Below, in pieces: positions 3,254 to 63,579 of a stretch of 64,000 nucleotides of DNA. The translations under genes and the position numbers were made by a program. The notes beneath the pieces are model-generated. The model did not search any database, was not told the DNA's origin, and saw nothing but the letters and a program-made list of their open reading frames with translations. Source of the stretch: an uncultured bacterium (GTDB lineage: Bacteria > Patescibacteriota > Minisyncoccia > Phycocordibacterales > PALSA-1337); assembly GCA_903839725.1 (NCBI GenBank), contig CAIMDG010000002.1:305117-369116 (forward strand), given 5' to 3'. Every line of letters begins with the position of its first letter. Positions within the stretch are counted from its first letter, which is position 1.

Positions 3254-4012
3254 TCAGAAGAACAATAAAATCAACGCCAAAAGTAGAAGTCCAACATCAA
3301 CTCGTCTACGAACCTTTATAACAAGTGTATCTTTCTTGATATACAGTAGCCCCCATACTATAAACACTGAGCCGATTAATGTTAGGGGAGTAATTTCTAT
3401 AGCTAAAATACAACCGATAATAAGTGATGCAGCTGATGCAATACGAGCAAAAGTATCGCCGAGAATTATTGGTGTTGTCTTTTTATAACCAGTATCAACT
3501 GATGTGTCAGCAATGTCGTGTAGCGTTTCTCGGCCAAAGATTATTAAAGCGGTAGTGACGAATGGAATCAGAACGGTATCTATGTGTGCACCAAGCGTCA
3601 AAGGTATAAGTATCGGACTTGCTGATGTCACAGTAACAAGAGTTACAGATAAGAGTGGTACTCTGCGTGCTTCAGAATACAAAGCTCCAATGAGTGCCAT
3701 ACCAAGTAACAATAATCCCGTTGCCAATTGTTGAAACAAAAGTGTTGTAATCAATGCGCAACATATAACCCAGAACAATAGTAACCATGAAATGTACAAT
3801 TTTGGATTACTACTAGCAAAACTTTTACCTTTTCCTATGTCGTGTGATCTATCACGCCAATCATTTTGAAGCATCGTAACTGCAATTACAAAGAAAAGAG
3901 TTGTGAGGATCAAAGCATGTACAGATATACCAGAATGCTTAAATCCGATAATACCAAGTATTACAATGAGTATACATTCTGGTAAGCGGATAGATTGCAG
4001 TAAACCAATCAT
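3254..4012 (-). CDS. UbiA-family aromatic/isoprenoid prenyltransferase
   Basis: Polytopic membrane protein with NDWRDRSHD (NDxxDxxxD) and a second Asp-rich motif HDIADTSVD. Convergent with and 14 bp from the CrtI-like gene. Confidence 0.65.
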   Translation of the reverse strand: MIGLLQSIRLPECILIVILGIIGFKHSGISVHALILTTLFFVIAVTMLQNDWRDRSHDIGKGKSFASSNPKLYISWLLLFWVICCALITTLLFQQLATGLLLLGMALIGALYSEARRVPLLSVTLVTVTSASPILIPLTLGAHIDTVLIPFVTTALIIFGRETLHDIADTSVDTGYKKTTPIILGDTFARIASAASLIIGCILAIEITPLTLIGSVFIVWGLLYIKKDTLVIKVRRRVDVGLLLLALILLFF

Positions 4013-13710: not shown

Positions 13711-14334
13711 ATGATCTCTATAAATACCCCCAATAATCTCGGAGTGAAGGTGTATCACTTCTTTCTATATCGTAGTATGTTGCCAGCACTTGTTTGTTTA
13801 TTTGCTGCTGGAGTACTTGCGGTTATGGGAAAATCCTTAAACAATTTGATTCTCGATATTCTATCTATGTTTGCGCCAGTCAATATACTGTCTCAGCAAC
13901 TCACCACAACTTTTGTTTCTAATAGTTTTTTTGCATTGATTGCTATAGCCATTATTATTGCAATGGTCGCTTTTACTAAGAGTACTTTGCAATACAGAAA
14001 TTTTTCGTTTACGCTCGAGGAATTCAATATCAAGATAAAACGAGGTGTTTTGTCGACCACTGAAATATCTGTACCGTATCGTCAACTTCAAGATGTGGTT
14101 ATTGCTCGAGATATCAACTATAAGATGTTTGGTCTTTCTCGTTTGGTTCTTAACACGTTGAAGGATGATGAGAGTGGTGACCACAAATCAAGCCAGATTG
14201 TTTTGGAACCGATTGACGCTATTCTTGCAGATGAAGCTCGTCAGATTCTTGAAAGTAAGATAGGTGTTCATGTTATTGAACGAACACGTGACATTCCTGT
14301 GCAGGGTAGCGTAAATCCGACACCTCACTTATAA
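13711..14334 (+). CDS. membrane protein with bacterial PH (YdbS/YdbT-like) domain
   Basis: Two TM helices then FTLEEFNIKIKRGVLSTTEISVPYRQLQDVVIARDINYKMFGLSRLVLNT. Confidence 0.5.
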   Translation: MISINTPNNLGVKVYHFFLYRSMLPALVCLFAAGVLAVMGKSLNNLILDILSMFAPVNILSQQLTTTFVSNSFFALIAIAIIIAMVAFTKSTLQYRNFSFTLEEFNIKIKRGVLSTTEISVPYRQLQDVVIARDINYKMFGLSRLVLNTLKDDESGDHKSSQIVLEPIDAILADEARQILESKIGVHVIERTRDIPVQGSVNPTPHL

Positions 14335-31031: not shown

Positions 31032-34000
31032 ATGTCAGTAGAAATTCCAGACAAAAAACCAAAATCACCTAATGCGGAGCGTGAAGAACGTATTCTTTTG
31101 AGTTGGAAAGAAAAAGATATTTTCAATAAAACTCTAACTAAACCTGCACCCAAAGGGGAATTCGTTTTTTTTGAAGGTCCTCCAACTGCCAATGGTCGCC
31201 CCGGAATCCATCACCTCGAAGCGCGTGCATTCAAGGATGCAATACCTCGTTACAAAACGATGCAAGGTTTTTATGTGCGTCGCAAAGGAGGTTGGGATAC
31301 TCACGGTTTGCCCGTTGAACTCCAAGTAGAAAAAGAGCTTGGTCTCAAATCAAAAAAGGAAATCGAGAATTACGGTATCGCCGCATTCAATGATAAGTGT
31401 AAAGAAAGTGTTTGGAAATATGTCCATGAATGGGAAGACTTCACCAATCGCATGGGATACTGGGTTGATCTCAAGAATCCATACATCACCTATAAGTCTC
31501 AATATATTGAAGCAGTATGGAATGTCATCAAGACTGCAGATGATAAGAAGTTACTCTATAAAGACTACAAAGTAGTACCATGGTGTCCGCGTTGTGGAAC
31601 AGGATTATCTTCACATGAATTGGCACAAGGGTATGAAGAAGTAAAGGATTTGACGTTGTACGTTAAATTCAAAATTAAATCTCAAATTTCAAATCTCAAA
31701 AATGAAGCACAGGGAGATACATATTTTTTGGCATGGACAACAACACCGTGGACGCTTCCGGGAAATGTGGCATTGGCAGTAGGGAAGGATATTGAATATG
31801 TGAAGGTTAAAACAGGTGAATTACTTTCACCAGAAGCTTCTTCACCTAAAGGTGGTAAAGGTGTCGATATGGAAGCGGCATTTATTCGCGGTAATAATAA
31901 GGATGATATTTATTTAATTCTTGCAAAAGAGCGTTTGAGTGTACTCAAAGATGTTCAGCATGAAATTGTTGAAACAATAAAGGGCTCTGACCTTGTCGGA
32001 CTTTCCTATGAGCCACTATTCTCATTCTTGAAAGACAGCGTGACAGGGGAGCAGAAAGATAAACTTTCACATGCATTCAAAGTATATGCGGGTGATTTCG
32101 TCACCACAACCGACGGTACAGGTATTGTGCACATCGCCCCAATGTATGGACAAGACGATTTTGAGCTCGGTACAAAAAATAATTTGCCAAAATATCATCT
32201 CGTAAATGATGACGGCACGTTCAAAAAAGAATGTGGCTTTTTGGCTGGTAGATTCGTCAAAGAGAAAGATGCTAATGGTAAACCAACCTTGGATGTTGAT
32301 GTGGTTAATTATCTCAAAGAAAAAGGATTATTCTTTGCTCAAGAAAATTATAAGCATACATATCCTCATTGCTGGCGCTGTCATACACCACTTATCTATT
32401 TTGCACGTGATTCATGGTATATCCGCATGTCATCACTTCGAGATGAGCTCGTTAAACAAAATGAAGGTATTCATTGGGAACCTGAACATATCAAAGAAGG
32501 ACGTTTCGGTGAATGGCTCCGCGAAATCAAGGATTGGGCAATTTCACGTGAGCGTTATTGGGGAACACCATTGCCAATCTGGTCATGTGAAAAATGTCAT
32601 GCACGAAAAGTTGTTGGTTCAGTCGATGATCTCAAACGTCCTGCAAAGAATACGTATTATGTGATGAGACATGGTGAGTCGACAGGTAATATTGAAAGGG
32701 TTTTGAATAGTAGTATAACCGCGCAAGTTTCTCTTACTGATACTGGTAAAGAGCAAGTAAAAAAGTCCGCGCAAGCTTTGAGAAAGATATCATTTGACTA
32801 CATAATCGCTTCTCCTCTTGTGCGCACCCAAGAAACAGCACATATTGTAAAAAATGAACTCGGTCTTACTGATAGTCAGATGATTACGGATGAACGTCTA
32901 GTCGAACTCGGTCTTGGTCCATGGAATGGAAAACCTGTAGATGATTTTCTTGATGCGTATCCAGTCGCTAGTCGCTTTGAGAAGACTATTGAAGGTGTAG
33001 AATCGTATGTTGATCTCAAAAAACGCGTTGGCGGTTTTCTCTATGAGTGTGAGAAAAAATATGAGGGCAAAACTATTCTTATCGTTACTCATGGTTCTCC
33101 TGCTACATTACTTGTGGCTGTGACACAGGGAATGAATCATGAACAAACTATTTCCTACGAAGAAGAACATTTCCTCGGTAATGCTGAAGTTCGTCCTCTT
33201 CAATATACCGTTTTTCCACATAATACTGAGTATGAACTCGATCTCCACCGACCATTCATCGATGAGGTAACCTTTGCATGTTCGTGTGGAGGAGTAATGA
33301 AGCGTGCAAAAGAAGTTATGGACGTCTGGTTTGATTCTGGAGCTATGCCATTTGCGCAAGATCACGAGATGAAATCTCAAATCTCAAAAATCAAATCTCA
33401 AAACTTCTTTTCAAAATTATTCGGTAAGGAATCAAAGATGTTATATCCTGCCGATTTTATTTCAGAGGCAATTGACCAGACTCGTGGATGGTTCTATACA
33501 CTTCATGCTATTGGTGCAATCATGGGGAAGGGTAAGGCGTACAGGAATGTTATTTGTCTCGGACATATTCTCGATGCTGAGGGTAAGAAGATGTCCAAGT
33601 CTGTAGGTAATGTGGTGAATCCATGGGACATGATGGATCTTTACGGTGCTGATGCATTACGTTTTTGGATGTATTCGGTCAATCAGCCAGGTGACTCAAA
33701 GAATTTTGATCAAAAAACAGTTGATGAGGTGGTGAAGAAAGTATTTAACTTGGCTTCAAATGTTCTTTCGTTCTATAAGATGTACGAAGATACATCTCAA
33801 AAATCAAATCTCAAAAATCAAATCAAATCGCAAAACGTACTGGATCAATGGATCATCACACGATTGGATGAAGTTATTGAGACGGTCACAAAAGGACTTG
33901 ATGGGTATGTATTCTTGGAACCTACACGTACTATCCGTGATTTTATCGCTGATCTATCACAATGGTATCTTCGCCGTTCACGCGATAGATTCAAGGGTGA

Positions 34001-34619
34001 TGATGAAGCTGATAAACAAGCAGCACTAGAAACAACAAAGTATGTATTGATAACTTTGGCAAAAGTTATGGCACCATTCACACCGTTCTTTGCTGAATTT
34101 ATGTATACAGAAACTGGTGGTGAAAAGGAAAGTGTTCACCTCGAGGAGTGGCCAGAAGCAGGGAAGGTTGATGCGAAACTTATTGCCGACATGAATATTG
34201 TTCGAAGTCTTTCTTCGAAGGGTCTTGAGGCAAGAATGAAGGCAAAAATAAATGTGAGACAGCCACTCGCAAATCTTAAATCTCAAATTTCAAATCTCAA
34301 AGATTTAGCACCGGAACTTATTGATCTCATAAAGGATGAAGTAAATGTAAAAAATATCGTATTTGAAGGAGCACTTACAACTGAAGTCGAGTTGGATACA
34401 ACTATCACTCCAGAGCTCAAAGAAGAAGGTGATGTTCGTGAACTCATCCGTTCTATTCAAGATTTGAGAAAAGAAAAAGGTCTGTCTGTAGGAGATAAAG
34501 TATCTATTACTGTCCCAGAATCAAATCGTGCCTTGGTTGAAAAATATGGCCATGAAATCAAGAAGACAACAGGTCTCATCGATATCAAGGTCGGTGATAG
34601 CTTGAGTATCATCGCGTAA
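31032..34619 (+). CDS. ileS: isoleucine--tRNA ligase carrying an inserted histidine-phosphatase domain and four short in-frame repeat insertions
   Basis: Canonical IleRS blocks: PPTANGRPGIHH (HIGH), AWTTTPWTLPGN, WGTPLPIWSCEKCH, DLHRPFIDEV..CSCGG, DVWFDSG, QTRGWFYTL, KMSKSVGN. 1195 aa is about 150-250 aa longer than typical. Confidence 0.92.
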   Translation: MSVEIPDKKPKSPNAEREERILLSWKEKDIFNKTLTKPAPKGEFVFFEGPPTANGRPGIHHLEARAFKDAIPRYKTMQGFYVRRKGGWDTHGLPVELQVEKELGLKSKKEIENYGIAAFNDKCKESVWKYVHEWEDFTNRMGYWVDLKNPYITYKSQYIEAVWNVIKTADDKKLLYKDYKVVPWCPRCGTGLSSHELAQGYEEVKDLTLYVKFKIKSQISNLKNEAQGDTYFLAWTTTPWTLPGNVALAVGKDIEYVKVKTGELLSPEASSPKGGKGVDMEAAFIRGNNKDDIYLILAKERLSVLKDVQHEIVETIKGSDLVGLSYEPLFSFLKDSVTGEQKDKLSHAFKVYAGDFVTTTDGTGIVHIAPMYGQDDFELGTKNNLPKYHLVNDDGTFKKECGFLAGRFVKEKDANGKPTLDVDVVNYLKEKGLFFAQENYKHTYPHCWRCHTPLIYFARDSWYIRMSSLRDELVKQNEGIHWEPEHIKEGRFGEWLREIKDWAISRERYWGTPLPIWSCEKCHARKVVGSVDDLKRPAKNTYYVMRHGESTGNIERVLNSSITAQVSLTDTGKEQVKKSAQALRKISFDYIIASPLVRTQETAHIVKNELGLTDSQMITDERLVELGLGPWNGKPVDDFLDAYPVASRFEKTIEGVESYVDLKKRVGGFLYECEKKYEGKTILIVTHGSPATLLVAVTQGMNHEQTISYEEEHFLGNAEVRPLQYTVFPHNTEYELDLHRPFIDEVTFACSCGGVMKRAKEVMDVWFDSGAMPFAQDHEMKSQISKIKSQNFFSKLFGKESKMLYPADFISEAIDQTRGWFYTLHAIGAIMGKGKAYRNVICLGHILDAEGKKMSKSVGNVVNPWDMMDLYGADALRFWMYSVNQPGDSKNFDQKTVDEVVKKVFNLASNVLSFYKMYEDTSQKSNLKNQIKSQNVLDQWIITRLDEVIETVTKGLDGYVFLEPTRTIRDFIADLSQWYLRRSRDRFKGDDEADKQAALETTKYVLITLAKVMAPFTPFFAEFMYTETGGEKESVHLEEWPEAGKVDAKLIADMNIVRSLSSKGLEARMKAKINVRQPLANLKSQISNLKDLAPELIDLIKDEVNVKNIVFEGALTTEVELDTTITPELKEEGDVRELIRSIQDLRKEKGLSVGDKVSITVPESNRALVEKYGHEIKKTTGLIDIKVGDSLSIIA
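31677..31703 (+). repeat. in-frame A-rich repeat copy 1 in ileS (encodes KSQISNLKN)
   Basis: AAATCTCAAATTTCAAATCTCAAAAAT. Confidence 0.6.
32655..33239 (+). other. histidine phosphatase (phosphoglycerate-mutase superfamily, branch 1) domain embedded in IleRS
   Basis: YYVMRHGESTGN (RHG catalytic His), SPLVRTQETA, DERLVELGLGPWNG, ILIVTHGSP (second His). Flanked by IleRS residues ...DDLKRPAKNT and EYELDLHRPF... Confidence 0.75.
33372..33404 (+). repeat. in-frame A-rich repeat copy 2 in ileS (KSQISKIKSQN)
   Basis: AAATCTCAAATCTCAAAAATCAAATCTCAAAAC. Confidence 0.6.
33793..33836 (+). repeat. in-frame A-rich repeat copy 3 in ileS (SQKSNLKNQIKSQN)
   Basis: CATCTCAAAAATCAAATCTCAAAAATCAAATCAAATCGCAAAAC. 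Confidence 0.6.
34271..34302 (+). repeat. in-frame A-rich repeat copy 4 in ileS (NLKSQISNLKD)
   Basis: AAATCTTAAATCTCAAATTTCAAATCTCAAAG. Confidence 0.6.
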
Positions 34620-35409: not shown

Positions 35410-37347
35410 ATGTCATCAGATGATCGTAGTCGTATTGAAGAACTTAAAAAGTCACTGTATTCTCGTACAGCGCCTGATGTTCGTACGCGCCGCAAACTTC
35501 ATTTCTCAGACCAAGCCAATGAAGTCAAAAAAACATGGGGTGACACTGTTGATACCCCAGTAGAAGCACCTGCTCCTGGTCAACAATACGAAGGTCATTC
35601 AATGTCTTTTTTTACTAAAATACTTATTGGTTCGATTATATTTTGTGCCATTTCTGTTGGTATTGGCGCATATCTCTTTTTCAATGGGGCGAATCTTATT
35701 TCTGGAAATAATATAGAGATAACTATCAGTGGGCCAGTTTCTATTCCTGGTGGAGAGCCAGTATCATTCGATGTGAAGGCTGTAAATAAAAATAATATTG
35801 GACTTGAAGTTGTTGATATGACCGTTGATTTTCCAGAAGGAACTATTGACCCCAAGCATCCATCACAAGAATTAAAGACCTATAGTCAGCTTATTGGAGA
35901 TTTGGCTTCTGGAGGTACTGCGCATCAGAAAATTGAAGCAATTATATTTGGTGAAGAAAATATGCAGAAACAGATCAATGTGACTTTGACCTATCAAGTC
36001 AAAGGATCTTCAGCGCTGTTCACCAAGAAACAGTCATATGATGTTCTTATCAATTCATCACCAATCACTGCTAGTGTTTCAACATTGAGCGAAATAACAT
36101 CTGGGCAAGAGTTTGATATGAAAGTTGTGGTTAAATCAAATTCTCAGCAAATACTCAAAAATATTCTTTTGAAGGGAAGTTATCCTTTTGGATATACATT
36201 CATATCAGCAGATACACAACCACTTTCTGATAATGCGACATGGAAGATAGGGGATATACCATCAGGTGGAGAACGTACGATCACCATTCATGGCAAATTG
36301 GAGGGATCTGATGCCGATAATCGAATCTTTCACTTTGTTGTTGGTACACAAGGTTCAGGTGCTGCCAATGCTATGGGAACTCAATATGTGGCAACAGAAC
36401 AAAATATCACTATTCAGAAACCATTCGTTTCGTTGAATATATCCGTGAATAGTCAGTCGGGAATTGCGGATACTGTTGGACAATTCAATAAACCTCAGAA
36501 AGTAGATATTATGTGGACGAATAATCTTTCTGTGCCAATTTCAAATCTACAAATTATCGCTAAGCTCTCAGGTACCGCGTATGACAAGACAGCTGTACAA
36601 CCAGATGCTGGGTATTTCCGTTCTATTACTGATGATGTTGTGTGGAATCAACAGACAAATCCTGAACTTGAACTCGTAAATCCTGGTGATACAGGACACG
36701 TGCGATTGAATGTTGTTCCAAAAGATAGAAGTACTTCATCAAATCAAATTATAAATCCAATACTGACAGTCGTTGTGAGTGTACTTTCGGATCGTTCTCG
36801 GGAAAATAATGTTGCCGGTAATCTTTCTTCTGTTGCAACAAAAAACATCCGCCTACCAACAAAAACTTCTCTTACTGGTCGAATTGTACGTTCAGTAGGA
36901 CCATTCACGAATACAGGACCTATCCCACCAAAAGCGGAACAGCCAACAACATATACTGTTATATGGACGATCAATAATACCGTCAACGCAATTTCCAATA
37001 CTCAAGTTACTGCAACATTGCCCCCATATGTTACGTGGCTCGGTCAAGCTTCACCTACAACAGAACCTATTACCTTCGATCAAAATAGTGGACTTATAAC
37101 CTGGAATCCAGGATCTGTTCCTGCGTATGCCAACAATACAACACTTCGAAAAGAAGTAGCATTTCAGATTTCATTTTTACCAAATGTGAATCAAGTTAAC
37201 CAGTATCCCGTTTTGGTAAATCAGGTAGACCTCAAGGCGGTTGACGGGTTTACGGGTGTAAAATTGGAAAGTATTCAAGAAAGCCTCACAACTCGATTCA
37301 GTACAGATCCTACGTATAAATCAATTCAATCTGTGGTTGTAAAGTAG
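35410..37347 (+). CDS. large membrane-anchored extracytoplasmic protein (hypothetical)
   Basis: 645 aa. TM helix near residue 70, then a long beta-rich, T/S/N-rich domain. Confidence 0.5.
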   Translation: MSSDDRSRIEELKKSLYSRTAPDVRTRRKLHFSDQANEVKKTWGDTVDTPVEAPAPGQQYEGHSMSFFTKILIGSIIFCAISVGIGAYLFFNGANLISGNNIEITISGPVSIPGGEPVSFDVKAVNKNNIGLEVVDMTVDFPEGTIDPKHPSQELKTYSQLIGDLASGGTAHQKIEAIIFGEENMQKQINVTLTYQVKGSSALFTKKQSYDVLINSSPITASVSTLSEITSGQEFDMKVVVKSNSQQILKNILLKGSYPFGYTFISADTQPLSDNATWKIGDIPSGGERTITIHGKLEGSDADNRIFHFVVGTQGSGAANAMGTQYVATEQNITIQKPFVSLNISVNSQSGIADTVGQFNKPQKVDIMWTNNLSVPISNLQIIAKLSGTAYDKTAVQPDAGYFRSITDDVVWNQQTNPELELVNPGDTGHVRLNVVPKDRSTSSNQIINPILTVVVSVLSDRSRENNVAGNLSSVATKNIRLPTKTSLTGRIVRSVGPFTNTGPIPPKAEQPTTYTVIWTINNTVNAISNTQVTATLPPYVTWLGQASPTTEPITFDQNSGLITWNPGSVPAYANNTTLRKEVAFQISFLPNVNQVNQYPVLVNQVDLKAVDGFTGVKLESIQESLTTRFSTDPTYKSIQSVVVK

Positions 37348-37407
37348 ATATTGCGTGGGTATTATAGGAATATATCAAGGTATTTTTCTATTGCTAGGTA
37401 TAATAGC

Positions 37408-37435
37408 TTGACAAATCTACTATAGGTGCTATGGT
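37408..37435 (+). promoter_or_regulatory. sigma70-type promoter TTGACA-16-TATGGT driving the GC-rich RNA locus
   Basis: Consensus -35 hexamer. A second TATAAT lies at 37399. Confidence 0.4.
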
Positions 37436-37444
37436 TATTTTATG

Positions 37445-37947
37445 GCAGGGCACTCTTGACACCCCCTTCCGGTGTTCCTGCCGTTTTGAAAGCAGAAAAG
37501 TCGCCGTTTGGACGGTCCCACGGGTTCTGAAGCAGTCTCGTTGCTGTCTGCGCAGATACTACGTCGGTCCGCCCTTCATGGCGTTGCGAGTCCGGACAAA
37601 TCCACTGGATCATCCGGTTGTTCCATCTTCCTTGTTGTTCTGGTGAAAATCAGATGGGGAGGTGGACACAATTTCCGTCTCGGTTCTCATTGTGAAAGTC
37701 ACACGCACTCATACGTGGCAATTGCAATGAGGCCGAGGCGACCAATTTGTTCTTTACATACTTTGCGCGGGGACACTTTGCTCAGGTGTCTGTCGCTGCA
37801 TCAGTTCCCACGAACACGTGTATGCGCTCGATTCGTTCACATCGCTGCGTTGGCCACATTGTGTTTGTGGGAGCCCCTTTTGTTCAGACAACATTGTTGT
37901 TTGATACCCCCCCCCGTCGTTACCAAACGATGGGGTGTTTTTTATCT
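37445..37947 (+). ncRNA. GC-rich structured non-coding RNA candidate (about 500 nt), identity unassigned (possibly a reduced RNase P RNA or another large structured RNA)
   Basis: Abrupt GC-rich island with all three + frames open and none on the minus strand. Own promoter. Ends in CCCCGTCGTTaccaAACGATGGGG plus T6 terminator (37905-37947) containing a C9 tract. Possible P4-like GAAAAGUCGCCG (37496) ... GGCGAC (37737) pairing and GGUGAAAA (37646), but the P15 and other universal RNase P motifs were not found. Confidence 0.4.
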
Positions 37948-38002
37948 AGTAATTTACGCATGACAGGTTTTCATTTTTGAGGAACTTTCCGATTTTAAGC
38001 TT

Positions 38003-39400
38003 TTGATATACAATGCCTTTATGTCAAAAGCACCAGAAACAATGGAATTACTCATCTCCCTCGCCAAGCGCAGGGGTTTTATATATCAAGGTTCAGAAAT
38101 ATACGGTGGTCTCGCAGGCACATGGGACTACGGTCCACTTGGTGTAACGCTCAAGAATAATGTGAGAAAGATATGGTGGAAGCGTTTCGTCGATGATCGT
38201 GATGATATGTACGGCATTGATGCAGCTATTCTCATGAACCAACGCACATGGGAAGCTACTGGTCACGTAGCTAGTTTTGCTGACCCTCTTGTTGAAGATG
38301 TTAAAACCAAGAAGCGTTTTCGTGCGGATCATCTTCTCGAAGATGCAGGCATTGATACAAAAGGTCTTACGGTAGCCAAGATGAATGACCTCATCAAAGA
38401 GAAAAAAATCAAGAGTCCAGACGGTAACACTGTTGGTGATATACGTCAGTTCAATATGATGTTCAAAACGCACGTCGGTGCAAATGAAGATGCAGGATCA
38501 ATTTCATATCTTCGTCCAGAAACAGCACAAGGTATGTTTGTGAACTTCAAAAACATCATGGATTCATTCCATCCAAAGCTTCCGTTCGGTATGGCACAGA
38601 TAGGTAAGGCTTTCCGAAATGAGATTGCTCCTCGCGATTTTCTATTCCGTGCGCGTGAATTCGAGCAGATGGAAATAGAATATATGGTTGATCCAAAGAA
38701 GTGGGCTGAAACCTTCGATCATTTCAGAGAACAGGTGATAGCTTTTACCAAGGATGTTGGTCTTACTCAGTCAAAGGTCCATGAATTGGAAATTGCTGAT
38801 GCAGATCGTGCTTTCTATTCAAAGCGTACAATTGATTTTGAATTTGATTTTCCTTTTGGTCGCAAAGAGTTGTATGGTCTCGCGTATCGTACGGATTATG
38901 ACTTGAAGCAACACTCTGAATTCAGTAAGGTTGATTTGTCATATTTTGATGAGGAAACAAAAGAGCGATTTGTTCCGCACTGCATTGAACCTTCATTCGG
39001 TCTAGATCGAACTGTTCTTGCAGTCCTCACTGACGCATATACTGAGGATGAACTTGGGGGAGAGAAGCGTGTATATCTCAAACTTGCACCGTCAGTAGCG
39101 CCATACAAGGTTGCAGTATTTCCACTGCTCAAGAACAAACCTCAACTCGTAGAGAAAGCTCGTGACATATTCAAGACTATCAAGAAAGTTATTCCTGAAG
39201 TTATTTTTGATGATAACGGCAATATTGGTAAGCGTTACCGCAGACAAGATGAAATTGGTACACCATTCTGTGTAACTGTTGATTTTGACACTATCGAGAA
39301 AAACTCTGGTGTTACTGTCAGAAATCGTGATACTGGAGCACAGGAGAGAGTTGAAGAGAAGGATTTGATTGAATTCTTAAAGAAATCTATTGGACAGTAG
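38003..39400 (+). CDS. glyQS: glycine--tRNA ligase (alpha2 homodimeric class II type)
   Basis: LAKRRGFIYQGSEIYGGLAGTWDYGPLG, FRNEIAPRDFLFRAREFEQMEIEY (motif 2), C-terminal anticodon-binding domain. 465 aa. Confidence 0.9.
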   Translation: MIYNAFMSKAPETMELLISLAKRRGFIYQGSEIYGGLAGTWDYGPLGVTLKNNVRKIWWKRFVDDRDDMYGIDAAILMNQRTWEATGHVASFADPLVEDVKTKKRFRADHLLEDAGIDTKGLTVAKMNDLIKEKKIKSPDGNTVGDIRQFNMMFKTHVGANEDAGSISYLRPETAQGMFVNFKNIMDSFHPKLPFGMAQIGKAFRNEIAPRDFLFRAREFEQMEIEYMVDPKKWAETFDHFREQVIAFTKDVGLTQSKVHELEIADADRAFYSKRTIDFEFDFPFGRKELYGLAYRTDYDLKQHSEFSKVDLSYFDEETKERFVPHCIEPSFGLDRTVLAVLTDAYTEDELGGEKRVYLKLAPSVAPYKVAVFPLLKNKPQLVEKARDIFKTIKKVIPEVIFDDNGNIGKRYRRQDEIGTPFCVTVDFDTIEKNSGVTVRNRDTGAQERVEEKDLIEFLKKSIGQ

Positions 39401-45155: not shown

Positions 45156-45339
45156 TAAATAGTATATGATCAGTGTGACTGTAAAAGCCCTAAGATAAGG
45201 GTTTTTATGTATATTGACATAAAGTACTATATTATGTTATAATACTCCTAAATCAGTTGAGGATGTCATTCTCCTCAAAATATAAACAATCGCCCATAAA
45301 CACTTGGGCACGAATGACGGATCGACAAGAGGATTGATT

Positions 45340-45690
45340 ATGAAGAATCTTTTAAAATGGATTATCGGAAACATCAGAATGGCTATTATTGTGATGTTGT
45401 TACTGGCTTGGCTGGTTGCCTTTCTTAAGATTGTGGTTGTGCCACTTTCGGGTCTGACGACGATGCTGTTTGTGTTGTTCTTTACCATCATGTCGTTTCA
45501 GGCAAGGTCGAGCGCAATATTTGCAACCGGCGGGTTGTTAATGTATCTCGCATCGTGGTTTGCTCTCGATGCGTATGGCCCATTTGTTGCATCATTTGTG
45601 TGCTCGATTGGCATATTCACGTGGTTTACCGGCTTCTACAAGACGGTTGTCGCAATACATAAAGCGGCAACGAGCCCTTCGGACATGTAA
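45340..45690 (+). CDS. small membrane protein (hypothetical)
   Basis: MKNLLKWIIGN... with three or four TM helices. ORF-track frame starts 45304. Confidence 0.4.
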   Translation: MKNLLKWIIGNIRMAIIVMLLLAWLVAFLKIVVVPLSGLTTMLFVLFFTIMSFQARSSAIFATGGLLMYLASWFALDAYGPFVASFVCSIGIFTWFTGFYKTVVAIHKAATSPSDM

Positions 45691-60121: not shown

Positions 60122-60160
60122 CAAACAAAAAACCGCCGAGATGGCGGTTTTTTGTTTGGG
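60122..60160. terminator. bidirectional rho-independent terminator
   Basis: CAAACAAAAAACCGCCgagaTGGCGGTTTTTTGTTTG, preceded by a GC-rich palindrome at 60060-60100. Confidence 0.7.
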
Positions 60161-60171
60161 GTGAAAGTGAA

Positions 60172-60564
60172 TTATTTGAACTCAACCTTTCCGCCTGCTG
60201 CTTCGATCTGCTTCTTCAAAGCTTCTGCATCTTCCTTCTTCATACCATCCTTGAGGAGAGTAGGAGCGGCATCAACGAGATCCTTTGCTTCCTTGAGACC
60301 AAGGGCAAGAACTTCCTTGACGATCTTGATAACAGCAATCTTTGTTGCACCTGATGATGCGAGGTGTACTGCAACAGTACTCTTCTCATCACCGGCTGCT
60401 GCTGCGGCTACTGGAGCGGCAACTGCTGTAGCTGCTGCTGAAACGCCGAATTTCTTCTCGAAGAGCTTAACGAGCTCATTCAAATCGAGGACCGACATAG
60501 TTTCAATCGCTTCAACGATTGATTTGAACTTTGCTGGAATTTCTACTGGTGTGTTATTTTCCAT
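60172..60564 (-). CDS. rplL: 50S ribosomal protein L7/L12
   Basis: [26 protein letters not shown], Ala-rich hinge, C-terminal [11 protein letters not shown]...GGKVEFK. Confidence 0.92.
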
Positions 60565-60583
60565 GTTTTTATAAATTAGTTAA

Positions 60584-61072: not shown

Positions 61073-61308
61073 ATGTTGTTAAATTACAAATTTCAAATAT
61101 CAATTTTCAAACCAGCATTTAGATGTGGTTTGTTTGAACATTGGAATTTGGTTTTTGATATTTCTAGTTGCCTTGGGCAACTGGTTCGACCTTTTATAGG
61201 CCTAATAGAGATGAATACCTCGGAAGGTCTTGTATCCTTATATAAGGATTGCCTTCTGTCTTAGAGCCTTGGGAACAATATTACATGAATTTTGATTAAA
61301 CGCAAATT

Positions 61309-61415
61309 GATGCAAATACGCGAATGTATGCGAATGACGCGAATAGAACGCACAGGAATCGAAAGTCGGATGCGACGTATTCGCGTCATTCGCATACATT
61401 TGCGTATTTACATCG
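61309..61415. repeat. iteron-built palindromic element, copy C (upstream of rplJ, divergent region)
   Basis: GATGCAAATACGCGAATGTATGCGAATGACGCGAATAG ... GTATTCGCGTCATTCGCATACATTTGCGTATTTACATCG. Confidence 0.7.
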
Positions 61416-61458
61416 CTATTTATTTGAAATAATTCTTTATAATGATAGACTACTTCCC

Positions 61459-62085
61459 ATGGACACTCTTACCGCATTATTTGGCAGCGAAACAAAAGTA
61501 AAATTGCTGCGATTATTTTTATTCAATCAAGGAACACCATTTCTCGTAAAAGAATTGGTAGAGAGAACGAAGTGCACATCAGGGTCGCTCAAGAAGGAAC
61601 TTTCTATGCTTGTAAAAGCTGATATCGTTCGTAAGAAAAATGTTTTAAAAGATATAGAGGTTATCAAGAACAAGAAAACAGTATTCAAGAAGCTCAAGGG
61701 GCCGGGTTTTATCTTGAACGACAAATTCCCGTATCTTGATTCGATCAAGAATCTTTTAACTGTTGCAAGTCTGAACGCCGATGATTCTTTGGCAAAGCGC
61801 TTCACCAATGCTGGTCGCGTGAAGTTATTCTTGGCAGCTGGTGTATTTATTCAGAACTGGGATTCACGCGTCGATCTTCTTATTGTCGGCGAAGAACTCA
61901 ATCTTCCTAAAATCGAATCAGTCATCAAGACTATCGAATCTGAAATTGGGAAGGAGATCGCGTATTCTGCATTTGAGACACAAGACTTCGAATATCGTCT
62001 TGGCATACATGATAGGTTGGTGCGGGATATTCTTGATTATCCGCATATAACATTGATCGATAGATTGGGAGTTGAACCACAATAA
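61459..62085 (+). CDS. hypothetical protein (ORF-track N-terminus 61324-61458 runs through the palindromic element and is probably not translated)
   Basis: Start taken as MDTLTALFGSETKVKLLRLF... Confidence 0.4.
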   Translation: MDTLTALFGSETKVKLLRLFLFNQGTPFLVKELVERTKCTSGSLKKELSMLVKADIVRKKNVLKDIEVIKNKKTVFKKLKGPGFILNDKFPYLDSIKNLLTVASLNADDSLAKRFTNAGRVKLFLAAGVFIQNWDSRVDLLIVGEELNLPKIESVIKTIESEIGKEIAYSAFETQDFEYRLGIHDRLVRDILDYPHITLIDRLGVEPQ

Positions 62086-62212: not shown

Positions 62213-62908
62213 ATGAATACAGATTTTGGATTACAGAACTTGAATGACACATTCACTAGTGCATTTCTAGAAATGTGGCATGGTGTTGCTCGCGTGCTTC
62301 CTGCAGTTGTTATGGCACTCATCATCTTCATCGTAGGATGGATTGTTGCTGCTCTTATTGCAAAGCTCGTCGAAAGTATCATCAAGGCTTTGAAGGTAGA
62401 TGCTGCTCTCAAGAGTGCAGGTCTCGAAGATGTCGTAAAGCGCGCTGGTCACAATTTGAACTCTGGCCTTTTCGTAGGTACATTGGTTAAGTGGTTTGTG
62501 ATCGTTGTATCTTTGATGATGTCATTTAATATTCTTGGTCTTGCTCAAGTCAATGACTTCCTCCGCCAAGTAGCAGATTTCCTTCCAAAGGTTATCTTCG
62601 CTGTTCTCGTACTCATGGTTACTGTTGTTGTTGCAAGTGCATTGCAGAAGATCGTTGTTGCAAGTGCTCGCGCAGCAAATGTTAAATCAGCAGAACTCAT
62701 CGGTCGCGCTGCAAAGTGGGCCGTATGGATATTTGCAATTATCGTTGTCTTGGATTATCTCATCATGCCAGGTTTCGCACAGGGCATACTCACACCAGTT
62801 ATCTTTGGTCTCGCTCTTGCCTTTGGCCTTTCATTTGGTCTCGGTGGTAAGGAAACAGCACAAAGAATTATCGAGAAGACAGCACATCACGTTCTTGAAA
62901 AGGAATAG
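62213..62908 (+). CDS. membrane protein (mechanosensitive-channel-like TM-helix repeat family)
   Basis: Four or five TM helices with repeated amphipathic LxxxAxxVxxA segments. Terminator 62932-62968. Confidence 0.4.
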   Translation: MNTDFGLQNLNDTFTSAFLEMWHGVARVLPAVVMALIIFIVGWIVAALIAKLVESIIKALKVDAALKSAGLEDVVKRAGHNLNSGLFVGTLVKWFVIVVSLMMSFNILGLAQVNDFLRQVADFLPKVIFAVLVLMVTVVVASALQKIVVASARAANVKSAELIGRAAKWAVWIFAIIVVLDYLIMPGFAQGILTPVIFGLALAFGLSFGLGGKETAQRIIEKTAHHVLEKE

Positions 62909-62983: not shown

Positions 62984-63121
62984 AATTCCAAATAACAAGC
63001 ACCAAATGACAAATAAATTACAAACTACAAATTTCAACTTCTAAACCTTGTTAAATGGGTTTGGAAATTATGATTTTTGTATTGGTTATTATTTGTCATT
63101 TGGTGCTTGTTATTTGGAATT
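62984..63121. repeat. perfect 33-bp inverted repeat with 72-nt spacer
   Basis: AATTCCAAATAACAAGCACCAAATGACAAATAA (62984-63016) and its exact reverse complement (63089-63121). Confidence 0.8.
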
Positions 63122-63194: not shown

Positions 63195-63579
63195 TATCCT
63201 CACTACCGAATGAATACAAGAAATACCCAATCACAGCGGCCATAGCCACACCCCGTCATTGGAGTGTTAAGCATGCCGCTCAATGAAGCGGTTTTTTCTT
63301 TTCAGAACGACAGAAACTTTGAAAACCACATATACTCAATCAAGTAAGGTTTGTGTGTGATGAGTAATTGCACACAAACAAAACGTACACGTCTCTCCGC
63401 CAACCGGCGGAAAGGGATGTGTACGTCATCCGCATTCGTTCGGGTCGAATGAATGCGGGCAGTTCATACGCTGTGAAGTGTATGAGCGAAGTAATGTAGG
63501 TATTTCTCGAAAGAGAAAATAGCATTCTGATGCAAATCAGAGTGCAAGAAAACAAAATGCGGTTTTTAAATTTCCTAAT

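Follow-up and report, generated by a model that had tools for sequence, protein, structure and literature searches.

The question raised by this locus is what fills the 674-nt spacer that, in a 64,000-nt stretch of DNA from an uncultured bacterium of the Patescibacteriota (contig CAIMDG010000002.1; the whole stretch is called the window below), separates the stop codon of a gene for a 645-amino-acid CLIPPER-like protein (37347) from the ATG of the glycyl-tRNA synthetase (GlyRS) gene, glyS (38021). Judged by the relatives of its GlyRS, the window belongs to the Patescibacteria/Paceibacterota, near Taylorbacteria. The gene order isoleucyl-tRNA synthetase (IleRS), RecO, 645-amino-acid protein, GlyRS is common to about 80 related genomes, and the spacer before glyS is normally shorter than 170 nt, exceeding 240 nt at 7 of 76 measurable loci. 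In the window it holds an element of about 500 nt on the forward strand (37442-37943), with a GC content of about 52% against about 40% in the flanks. We conclude that this element is very probably a genuine gene for a non-coding structured RNA. The whole explanation that we favour, with a probability of roughly 0.6, is a stand-alone, trans-acting RNA gene of about 500 nt that belongs to an undescribed family of one clade of Paceibacterota. The initial annotation of this DNA, made from the letters alone, had proposed a structured RNA whose class could not be assigned, with a lineage-specific large non-coding RNA (ncRNA) among the candidates; strand-specific folding, a conserved promoter and terminator, helices kept in four lineages, the absence of a coding signal and the lack of any Rfam match now support that proposal.

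The composition of the region sets it apart from its surroundings. GC content is 0.50-0.535 across 37400-37900 and 0.37-0.42 on either side, so that the abrupt rise described earlier is real, and the region is among the few 300-nt segments of the 64 kb with a value above 0.50. The forward strand is poor in A (18-20%) and for this reason also poor in stop codons, with 2, 5 and 2 stops in its three frames against 5, 7 and 5 in those of the reverse strand. The earlier description, in which all forward frames were open and none of the reverse ones, was therefore right as to the direction of the difference and inexact as to its extent, since the forward frames are not fully open.

The forward strand folds with a minimum free energy (MFE) of -200.8 kcal/mol, compared with -160.9 +/- 5.5 kcal/mol for 100 dinucleotide shuffles, none of which folded as well (z = -7.3); the many internal complementary segments noticed at the outset thus go far beyond chance. 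The reverse strand of the same region reaches only z = -1.4, and two coding stretches used as controls gave z values of about 0 to +1. The excess is restricted to the forward strand because many of the pairs are G-U, which argues for selection on an RNA rather than for palindromes in the DNA.

The ends of the element suggest a transcription unit of its own. A promoter lies at 37408-37435 (+), with a -35 box TTGACA (37408-37413), a 16-nt spacer and a TG-extended -10 box TGC-TATGGT (37427-37435), which together match the consensus at 10 of 12 positions. It is unique within the window, and the four lineages described below all share its invariant boxes, TTGACAAAT...GGTGCTAT(GG/AA)T, within a spacer that is otherwise unalignable. 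At the 3' end (37907-37943, +) a terminator scan detected an intrinsic terminator, composed of a 10-bp hairpin, CCCCGTCGTTACCAAACGATGGGG, at 37912-37935 and a T6 tail at 37938-37943, with a run of nine C residues (37907-37915) just 5' of the hairpin stem and overlapping it. Both the promoter and the strong 3' hairpin with its T6 and C9 had been pointed out in the initial annotation, and the analysis bears out both. A hairpin followed by a U-run closes the element in every lineage, the terminator sequences differing between lineages. Transcription would start near 37442, about 7 nt past the -10 box, and would run to about 37943. The C9 homopolymer is C8 in a contig of the same species from another sample (L004), a difference explained either by polymorphism in length or by an error in assembly.

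Homologues were sought at the same locus on contigs encoding proteins closely related to GlyRS and to the 645-amino-acid protein. In other samples the same species is represented by contigs whose element is identical to that of the window, except that L004 has C8. Besides the window we found three diverged homologues, all at the syntenic site, which makes four lineages in total. In the closest, L092 (equal to L093), the upstream protein is 92% identical, the element was detected by nhmmer with E = 5e-72 and its core is 87% identical to that of the window. The corresponding values for L086 are 95% identity in GlyRS, E = 1e-42 and 72% core identity, and for the most diverged sequence, L094 (equal to L087 and L095), 86% identity in GlyRS, E = 3e-11 and 55% core identity. 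All three homologues fold better than their shuffles (z = -8.4 for L092, -6.4 for L086 and -3.9 for L094).

The RNA consists of a variable 5' domain and a conserved 3' core of 335 nt (37610-37945), which comprises helices H1-H5, two pyrimidine tracts that stay unpaired, and the terminator; all features are on the forward strand. Judged from the folds, the 5' domain (37442-37609) begins with a hairpin (37442-37484), after which come UUUGAAAG, which is semi-conserved, and a hairpin that is long and branched. This domain is replaceable: it is about 40 nt long in L092 and is made up of about 200-240 nt of differing sequence in L094 and L086, and only YCUNCCRUYUU-GAAAG can be aligned within it across the lineages.

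The core opens with H1 (37616-37673), formed by GGUUGUUCCAUCUUCC and GGGGAGGUGGACACAAU with a variable tip and alike in shape in the four lineages; 92.2% of its cells in the alignment are paired, against 48-62% in slid controls, and one A-U pair is replaced by G-C through a double change. H2 (37676-37741) comprises an 18-bp stem, an internal loop in which GAAA / AMUW is conserved, and an apical stem that covaries; 92.9% of its cells are paired (39-57% when slid) and four of its pairs are changed on both sides, values that are reached by 6-18 of 500 shuffles. After it comes a pyrimidine-rich linker, CCAAUUUGUUCUUUACAUACUU (37742-37763), that every lineage leaves unpaired in both its MFE and its centroid fold; the linker includes one of the longest stretches of the alignment that show no change, and its GUUCUUU (37749-37755) is invariant. 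H3 (37764-37800; UGCGCGGGGACACUU / AGGUGUCUGUCGCUGCA) has a conserved outer stem and is the weakest of the helices, because its inner stem shifts register in L086. H4 (37804-37874), with a 17-bp outer stem and an inner GCGC/CGAU stem-loop, has 93.9% of its cells paired (22-56% when slid) and two pairs changed on both sides, so that H1, H2 and H4 together contain seven such pairs. A second pyrimidine-rich tract, CCCUUUUGU (37875-37883), is unpaired in the four lineages, where it reads CCCCUUUUGUUC, CCCCUUUUAUUC, CUCUUUCCUUC and UUUCCCCUUACC. The last hairpin before the terminator, H5 (37884-37904; UCAGACAAC-AUU-GUUGUUUGA), is found at the same place in every lineage with a sequence that differs by lineage, CGAUCA/UGAUCG in L086 and CUUACCGA/UCGGUGAG in L094. 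In H5, in the tips of H1 and H2 and in the terminator the sequence has thus been turned over in each lineage, and the hairpins have always been kept. The compensatory covariation in H1, H2 and H4 is suggestive.

The features expected of a trans-regulatory RNA, an independent unit with its own promoter and terminator and a conserved, accessible tract, were both found, the former in the sequences of all four lineages and the latter as the invariant GUUCUUU that stays unpaired in all folds. We propose that a strong sigma-70-type promoter belonging to the gene itself drives its transcription, which an intrinsic terminator of its own stops shortly before a separate, leaderless glyS unit begins. The rigid hairpins would give the RNA stability and serve as a scaffold, and the exposed tracts GUUCUUU...UUUG and CCCUUUU might pair with purine-rich RNA or bind a protein in trans. 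That the RNA acts in trans through these single-stranded tracts is a possibility we advance tentatively. A role as a mimic of the anti-Shine-Dalgarno sequence was dropped as unlikely, because Shine-Dalgarno motifs are absent (see below).

Several observations weigh against a functional, trans-acting RNA. The gene is dispensable, having been deleted in one relative, L006, and at this locus the gap is shorter than 170 nt in about 70 of 76 relatives. The pair changes in H1 and H4 do not exceed those in a column-shuffle control, and since there are only four distinct sequences, the covariation is suggestive and not statistically decisive. A duplex scan of the 64-kb window with the linker gave no target site better than those of shuffled linkers. 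The elements that other lineages carry at the same locus show no significant similarity to the window family in blastn, nhmmer or covariance-model searches. Transcription of the gene, finally, is deduced from its sequence.

The GlyRS of L006 is 92% identical to that of the window, and the spacer before its glyS is just 80 nt long, without the RNA gene; as the more distant L094 carries the gene, L006 has lost it, which argues for an accessory rather than a core role. Within 1499-1577 of L006, GGTGTTTTTGTCTA...GTAAT is still present; it is similar to the terminator tail of the window and the bases downstream, and looks like the footprint of the deletion. The element is also absent from the lineages with 81-82% GlyRS identity. 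Searches with the element by blastn and nhmmer against a first set of 85 loci (5 of the same species and 80 GlyRS-syntenic genomes) returned the same-species copies only, and a covariance model, R1, which covers the linker, H3 and H4, with H4 as its main part, found only the four known lineages in 795 kb, its match in L030 (E = 3.7) not being significant. A pattern scan of metagenomes for TTGTTCCRTC-N20-50-GGAYACAATTTMCG gave a single match, in L091, attributed to chance; a match to the composite motif in L039 was likewise discarded as chance, as it lies antisense within the coding sequence of IleRS. Two other islands of the window that are GC-rich or fold well, 45304-45690 (a small membrane protein) and 60152-60574 (rplL, - strand), are not paralogues of the RNA.

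The spacer before glyS appears to be a hot spot, in that other lineages carry there unalignable, GC-rich and strongly folding elements with a promoter and terminator of their own. They lie at 3504-3995 in L012, 3528-3995 in L013, 3521-4001 in L030, 3601-3998 in L056, 4436-4685 in L096, 4439-5050 in L097 and 2749-3180 in L105; those of L012, L013, L030, L056, L097 and L105 fold 17-42 kcal/mol better than shuffles. The motif GTTCTTT occurs in three of six such elements (4 occurrences against 0.29 expected; P = 0.0045 compared with shuffles) and again in L105, and in these elements it always stands in or beside an unpaired tract: GGTTCTTTTCATGATTTTGCGCGCG in L030, CCCCTTTGTTCTTTG...CATCTTTGGCGC in L105 and TTAGTTCTTTCTATATTT in L097. 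L097 and L105 share, in addition, a covarying hairpin. Profile hidden Markov models of the core and of the linker with H3 gave no significant score for L030, L097 or L105, and since neither these nor the covariance searches were significant, homology is unproven despite the enrichment of GTTCTTT. A common, rapidly diverging origin of the window RNA and the same-locus elements is plausible and, as yet, unproven. A wider form of this idea would unite the window RNA and the elements of L097, L105, L096, L030, L012, L013 and L056 in one ancient, fast-evolving class of large ncRNA specific to the candidate phyla radiation (CPR), defined by its hairpin architecture and an exposed GUUCUUU...UUUG tract and having a role tied to leaderless, Shine-Dalgarno-free expression, for example as the RNA part, or as a sponge, of a factor acting in translation, transcription or RNA turnover; taken as a whole we consider this doubtful. 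The same spacer also contains additional open reading frames (ORFs) of about 170 codons, without a Pfam match, in L085 (about 3392-3900) and L097 (5229-5741).

Such inserts bear on the alternative that the element has no function at all and is what is left of a selfish insertion, or else a piece of DNA acquired horizontally and now in decay, its GC content and folding being accidental. Its sporadic distribution, with loss in L006 and absence from most relatives, the turnover of the 5' domain and the tendency of the locus to gather unrelated inserts, such as the ORFs of L085 and L097, would fit this explanation. However, the promoter boxes, the function of the terminator, the helix pairing and the unpaired tracts are all kept at core identities of 55-87%, and the G-U-rich pairing of the forward strand alone indicates selection at the level of RNA. 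The element is without protein similarity, blastn against phage and plasmid sequences gave no match to it, and two scans of viral sequences yielded either nothing or chance matches. An origin as a miniature inverted-repeat transposable element or other insertion element was dropped, because the element has no terminal inverted repeats and no second copy and sits at a fixed locus. We therefore regard a non-functional element as unlikely.

The position of the RNA directly upstream of glyS, on the same strand and with an intrinsic terminator some 85 nt ahead of the ATG, raises the alternative of a cis-acting leader or attenuator, T-box-like or another riboswitch, whose terminator would be opened by uncharged tRNA-Gly or a metabolite. 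T-boxes upstream of glyQS are well known in Firmicutes, and in gene context, strand and terminator the window RNA resembles them (RF00230). In contrast to them, it shows no specifier loop, no T-box sequence (AGGGUGGNACCGCG-like) and no antiterminator; the UGGA of H1 is CGGA in L086; and at about 500 nt it is roughly twice as long. There was no T-box or riboswitch match at E <= 10 in the window and none in the homologues searched, and the terminators differ between lineages without a covarying alternative pairing.

A leader function is also hard to reconcile with the way glyS seems to be expressed. The gene has a promoter of its own, downstream of the RNA's terminator, whose box, TGATATACAAT, lies with the start codon at 38004-38023 (+), apart from the RNA, and marks the RNA's 3' boundary. 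Relatives have kept this box, 6-8 nt from the ATG, whether or not they carry the RNA, and glyS has no Shine-Dalgarno motif. The same arrangement is widespread in the window, where a TANNNT box ends 5-9 nt before the ATG in 22 of 35 ORFs of at least 200 codons (9% at random positions) and none of these 35 ORFs has a Shine-Dalgarno-like motif at -18 to -4; examples of the leaderless type are found at 13711, 28111, 38021 and 41782 and among the genes of the reverse strand. Boxes so close to the ATG, together with the lack of Shine-Dalgarno motifs, make the genes of the window appear to be transcribed largely as leaderless mRNAs, and the organism appears to express most of its genes in this manner. 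Given its own promoter and no Shine-Dalgarno motif, a transcript that read through from the RNA into glyS would bury the start codon and leave the mRNA without a usable one, so that the read-through on which a T-box depends is not expected here. The buried start codon and the missing T-box features together make a cis-regulatory glyS leader improbable, and most likely the terminator of the RNA insulates two separate transcription units.

We also considered a divergent housekeeping RNA, that is, RNase P RNA, transfer-messenger RNA (tmRNA), 6S RNA or the RNA of the signal recognition particle (SRP). GC-rich islands in AT-rich genomes are typical of such RNAs, and like RNase P RNA (RF00010/RF00011) the element is several hundred nucleotides long and contains GAAAGUC-like strings, at 37496 and 37690; the 4-mers GAAA and AGTC are enriched in the elements of this locus. 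The initial annotation had gone further and suggested an RNase P-like molecule, in which 37496-37507 would pair with GGCGAC (37737-37743) as helix P4, and had listed GGUGAAAA at 37646 as another feature of this kind. These suggestions fail. In all four lineages GGCGAC forms the base of H2 by pairing locally with 37676-37679; the other arm is part of the dispensable 5' domain, does not exist in L092 and is unalignable and not conserved in L094; and GGUGAAAA falls in the variable apical loop of H1. The long-range P4 helix between CR-I (GGAAAGUCC) and CR-V (ACAGAA...) was not found, nor was P1.

The searches of known RNA families, which the initial annotation had called for, left the class unassigned. 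Over the whole window, Rfam 15 at its gathering scores gave only the start of a 23S rRNA gene at 63576; at E <= 10 on 37300-38100 it gave only anti-hemB and NsiR1, which are chance terminator look-alikes, and it returned nothing relevant at E <= 1 over the whole window or at E <= 5 on L086, L094, L097, L012, L013, L030 and L056. RNase P (RNaseP_bact_a/b), tmRNA, 6S, SRP, T-box, OLE, ROOL, GOLLD and raiA, and HEARO as well, had no Rfam match at E <= 10, and no housekeeping covariance model matched at this threshold in the window or the seven related loci. ARAGORN detected neither a tRNA nor a tmRNA in the window, in agreement with the earlier statement that the tRNA-like acceptor and T-arm of tmRNA are missing. 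In shape, too, the RNA differs, as it is a local chain of at least five separate hairpins, without the closing 5'-3' helix of RNase P RNA or tmRNA and without the rod shape of 6S RNA (RF00013), whose helix of about 180 nt opens into a bubble at its centre. RNase P RNA is essential and kept throughout a lineage; at this locus, the RNA gene is missing from a close relative, L006, in which it was deleted, and from about 70 relatives. A housekeeping RNA is thus very unlikely.

That the region encodes a protein can be practically dismissed: the forward strand does contain an open stretch of 157 codons, with a 151-codon ORF from a TTG (37508-37963), and an ATG at 37442 that stands about 7 nt past the -10 box, as in the organism's leaderless genes; but that ATG opens five codons only and is absent in L092, L086 and L094, the long frame is not preserved there (longest forward frames of 64, 106 and 125 codons), the homologues differ by indels of 1, 2, 4 and 7 nt and by substitutions without 3-nt periodicity, L004 has a 1-nt deletion inside the long ORF, and none of four ORFs has a Pfam match. 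A conserved coding signal, which had been named at the start as something that would speak against an RNA gene, was thus looked for in frames, indels and Pfam matches and did not appear, and by its sequence the region is non-coding.

Some other features of the window are recorded here. The 23S rRNA gene that starts at 63576 is preceded by protein-sized ORFs (61324-62085 and 62213-62908) and not by 16S rRNA or tRNA genes, which suggests that the rRNA genes of this organism are unlinked. In the precomputed Pfam lists, the IleRS (1195 amino acids, 31032-34619) has a His_Phos_1 (PF00300) match between segments of tRNA-synt_1, as do its counterparts in L094 (1-1794) and L097 (1-1879); this would be an unusual inserted domain. 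Sub-threshold Rfam matches to plant microRNA models, MIR2599 at 62988-63116 (+; E = 0.0025) and MIR821 at 61294-61431 (-; E = 0.005), are probably merely long hairpins, the former lying in the leader of the 23S rRNA.

The ncRNAs of Patescibacteria (CPR) are almost unexplored, and a search of the literature brought up no publication that deals with structured ncRNAs in them. With its promoter, ends, helices and putative functional tract defined, the RNA described here is a clean and experimentally tractable candidate. Its fast sequence turnover with retained hairpins, its replaceable 5' module and its repeated loss also make it useful for tracing the birth and decay of lineage-specific RNAs in reduced genomes. 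Should the same-locus elements prove to be related, it would represent a CPR-wide RNA class; as things stand, it is a narrowly distributed orphan ncRNA.

The GC-IGR/DIMPL approach has found orphan large ncRNAs as GC-rich intergenic islands (PMC8723152, PMC11109978). Like OLE, raiA, ROOL, GOLLD and HEARO, the window RNA stands out as a long, GC-rich stretch between the genes of an AT-rich genome, has extensive conserved structure and has a function that is not evident from its neighbour genes. It differs from them in its lack of an Rfam match, in a far narrower distribution and a faster sequence turnover, and in consisting mostly of local hairpins, with no demonstrated multi-way junctions or pseudoknots. 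The nearest analogue is RNAIII of Staphylococcus aureus, a large, multi-hairpin regulatory RNA of 514 nt. The two have no sequence or covariance-model relation, the window RNA encodes no peptide, and RNAIII pairs its C-rich loops with Shine-Dalgarno sites, from which the window organism is essentially free; however, they are similar in size, each has its own promoter and intrinsic terminator, each is confined to a narrow lineage, and in both, short conserved sequences are exposed, unpaired or in loops, along a chain of stable local hairpins. As a kind of thing the RNA is thus ordinary, since bacteria hold many orphan ncRNAs, while the family itself is new and clade-restricted.

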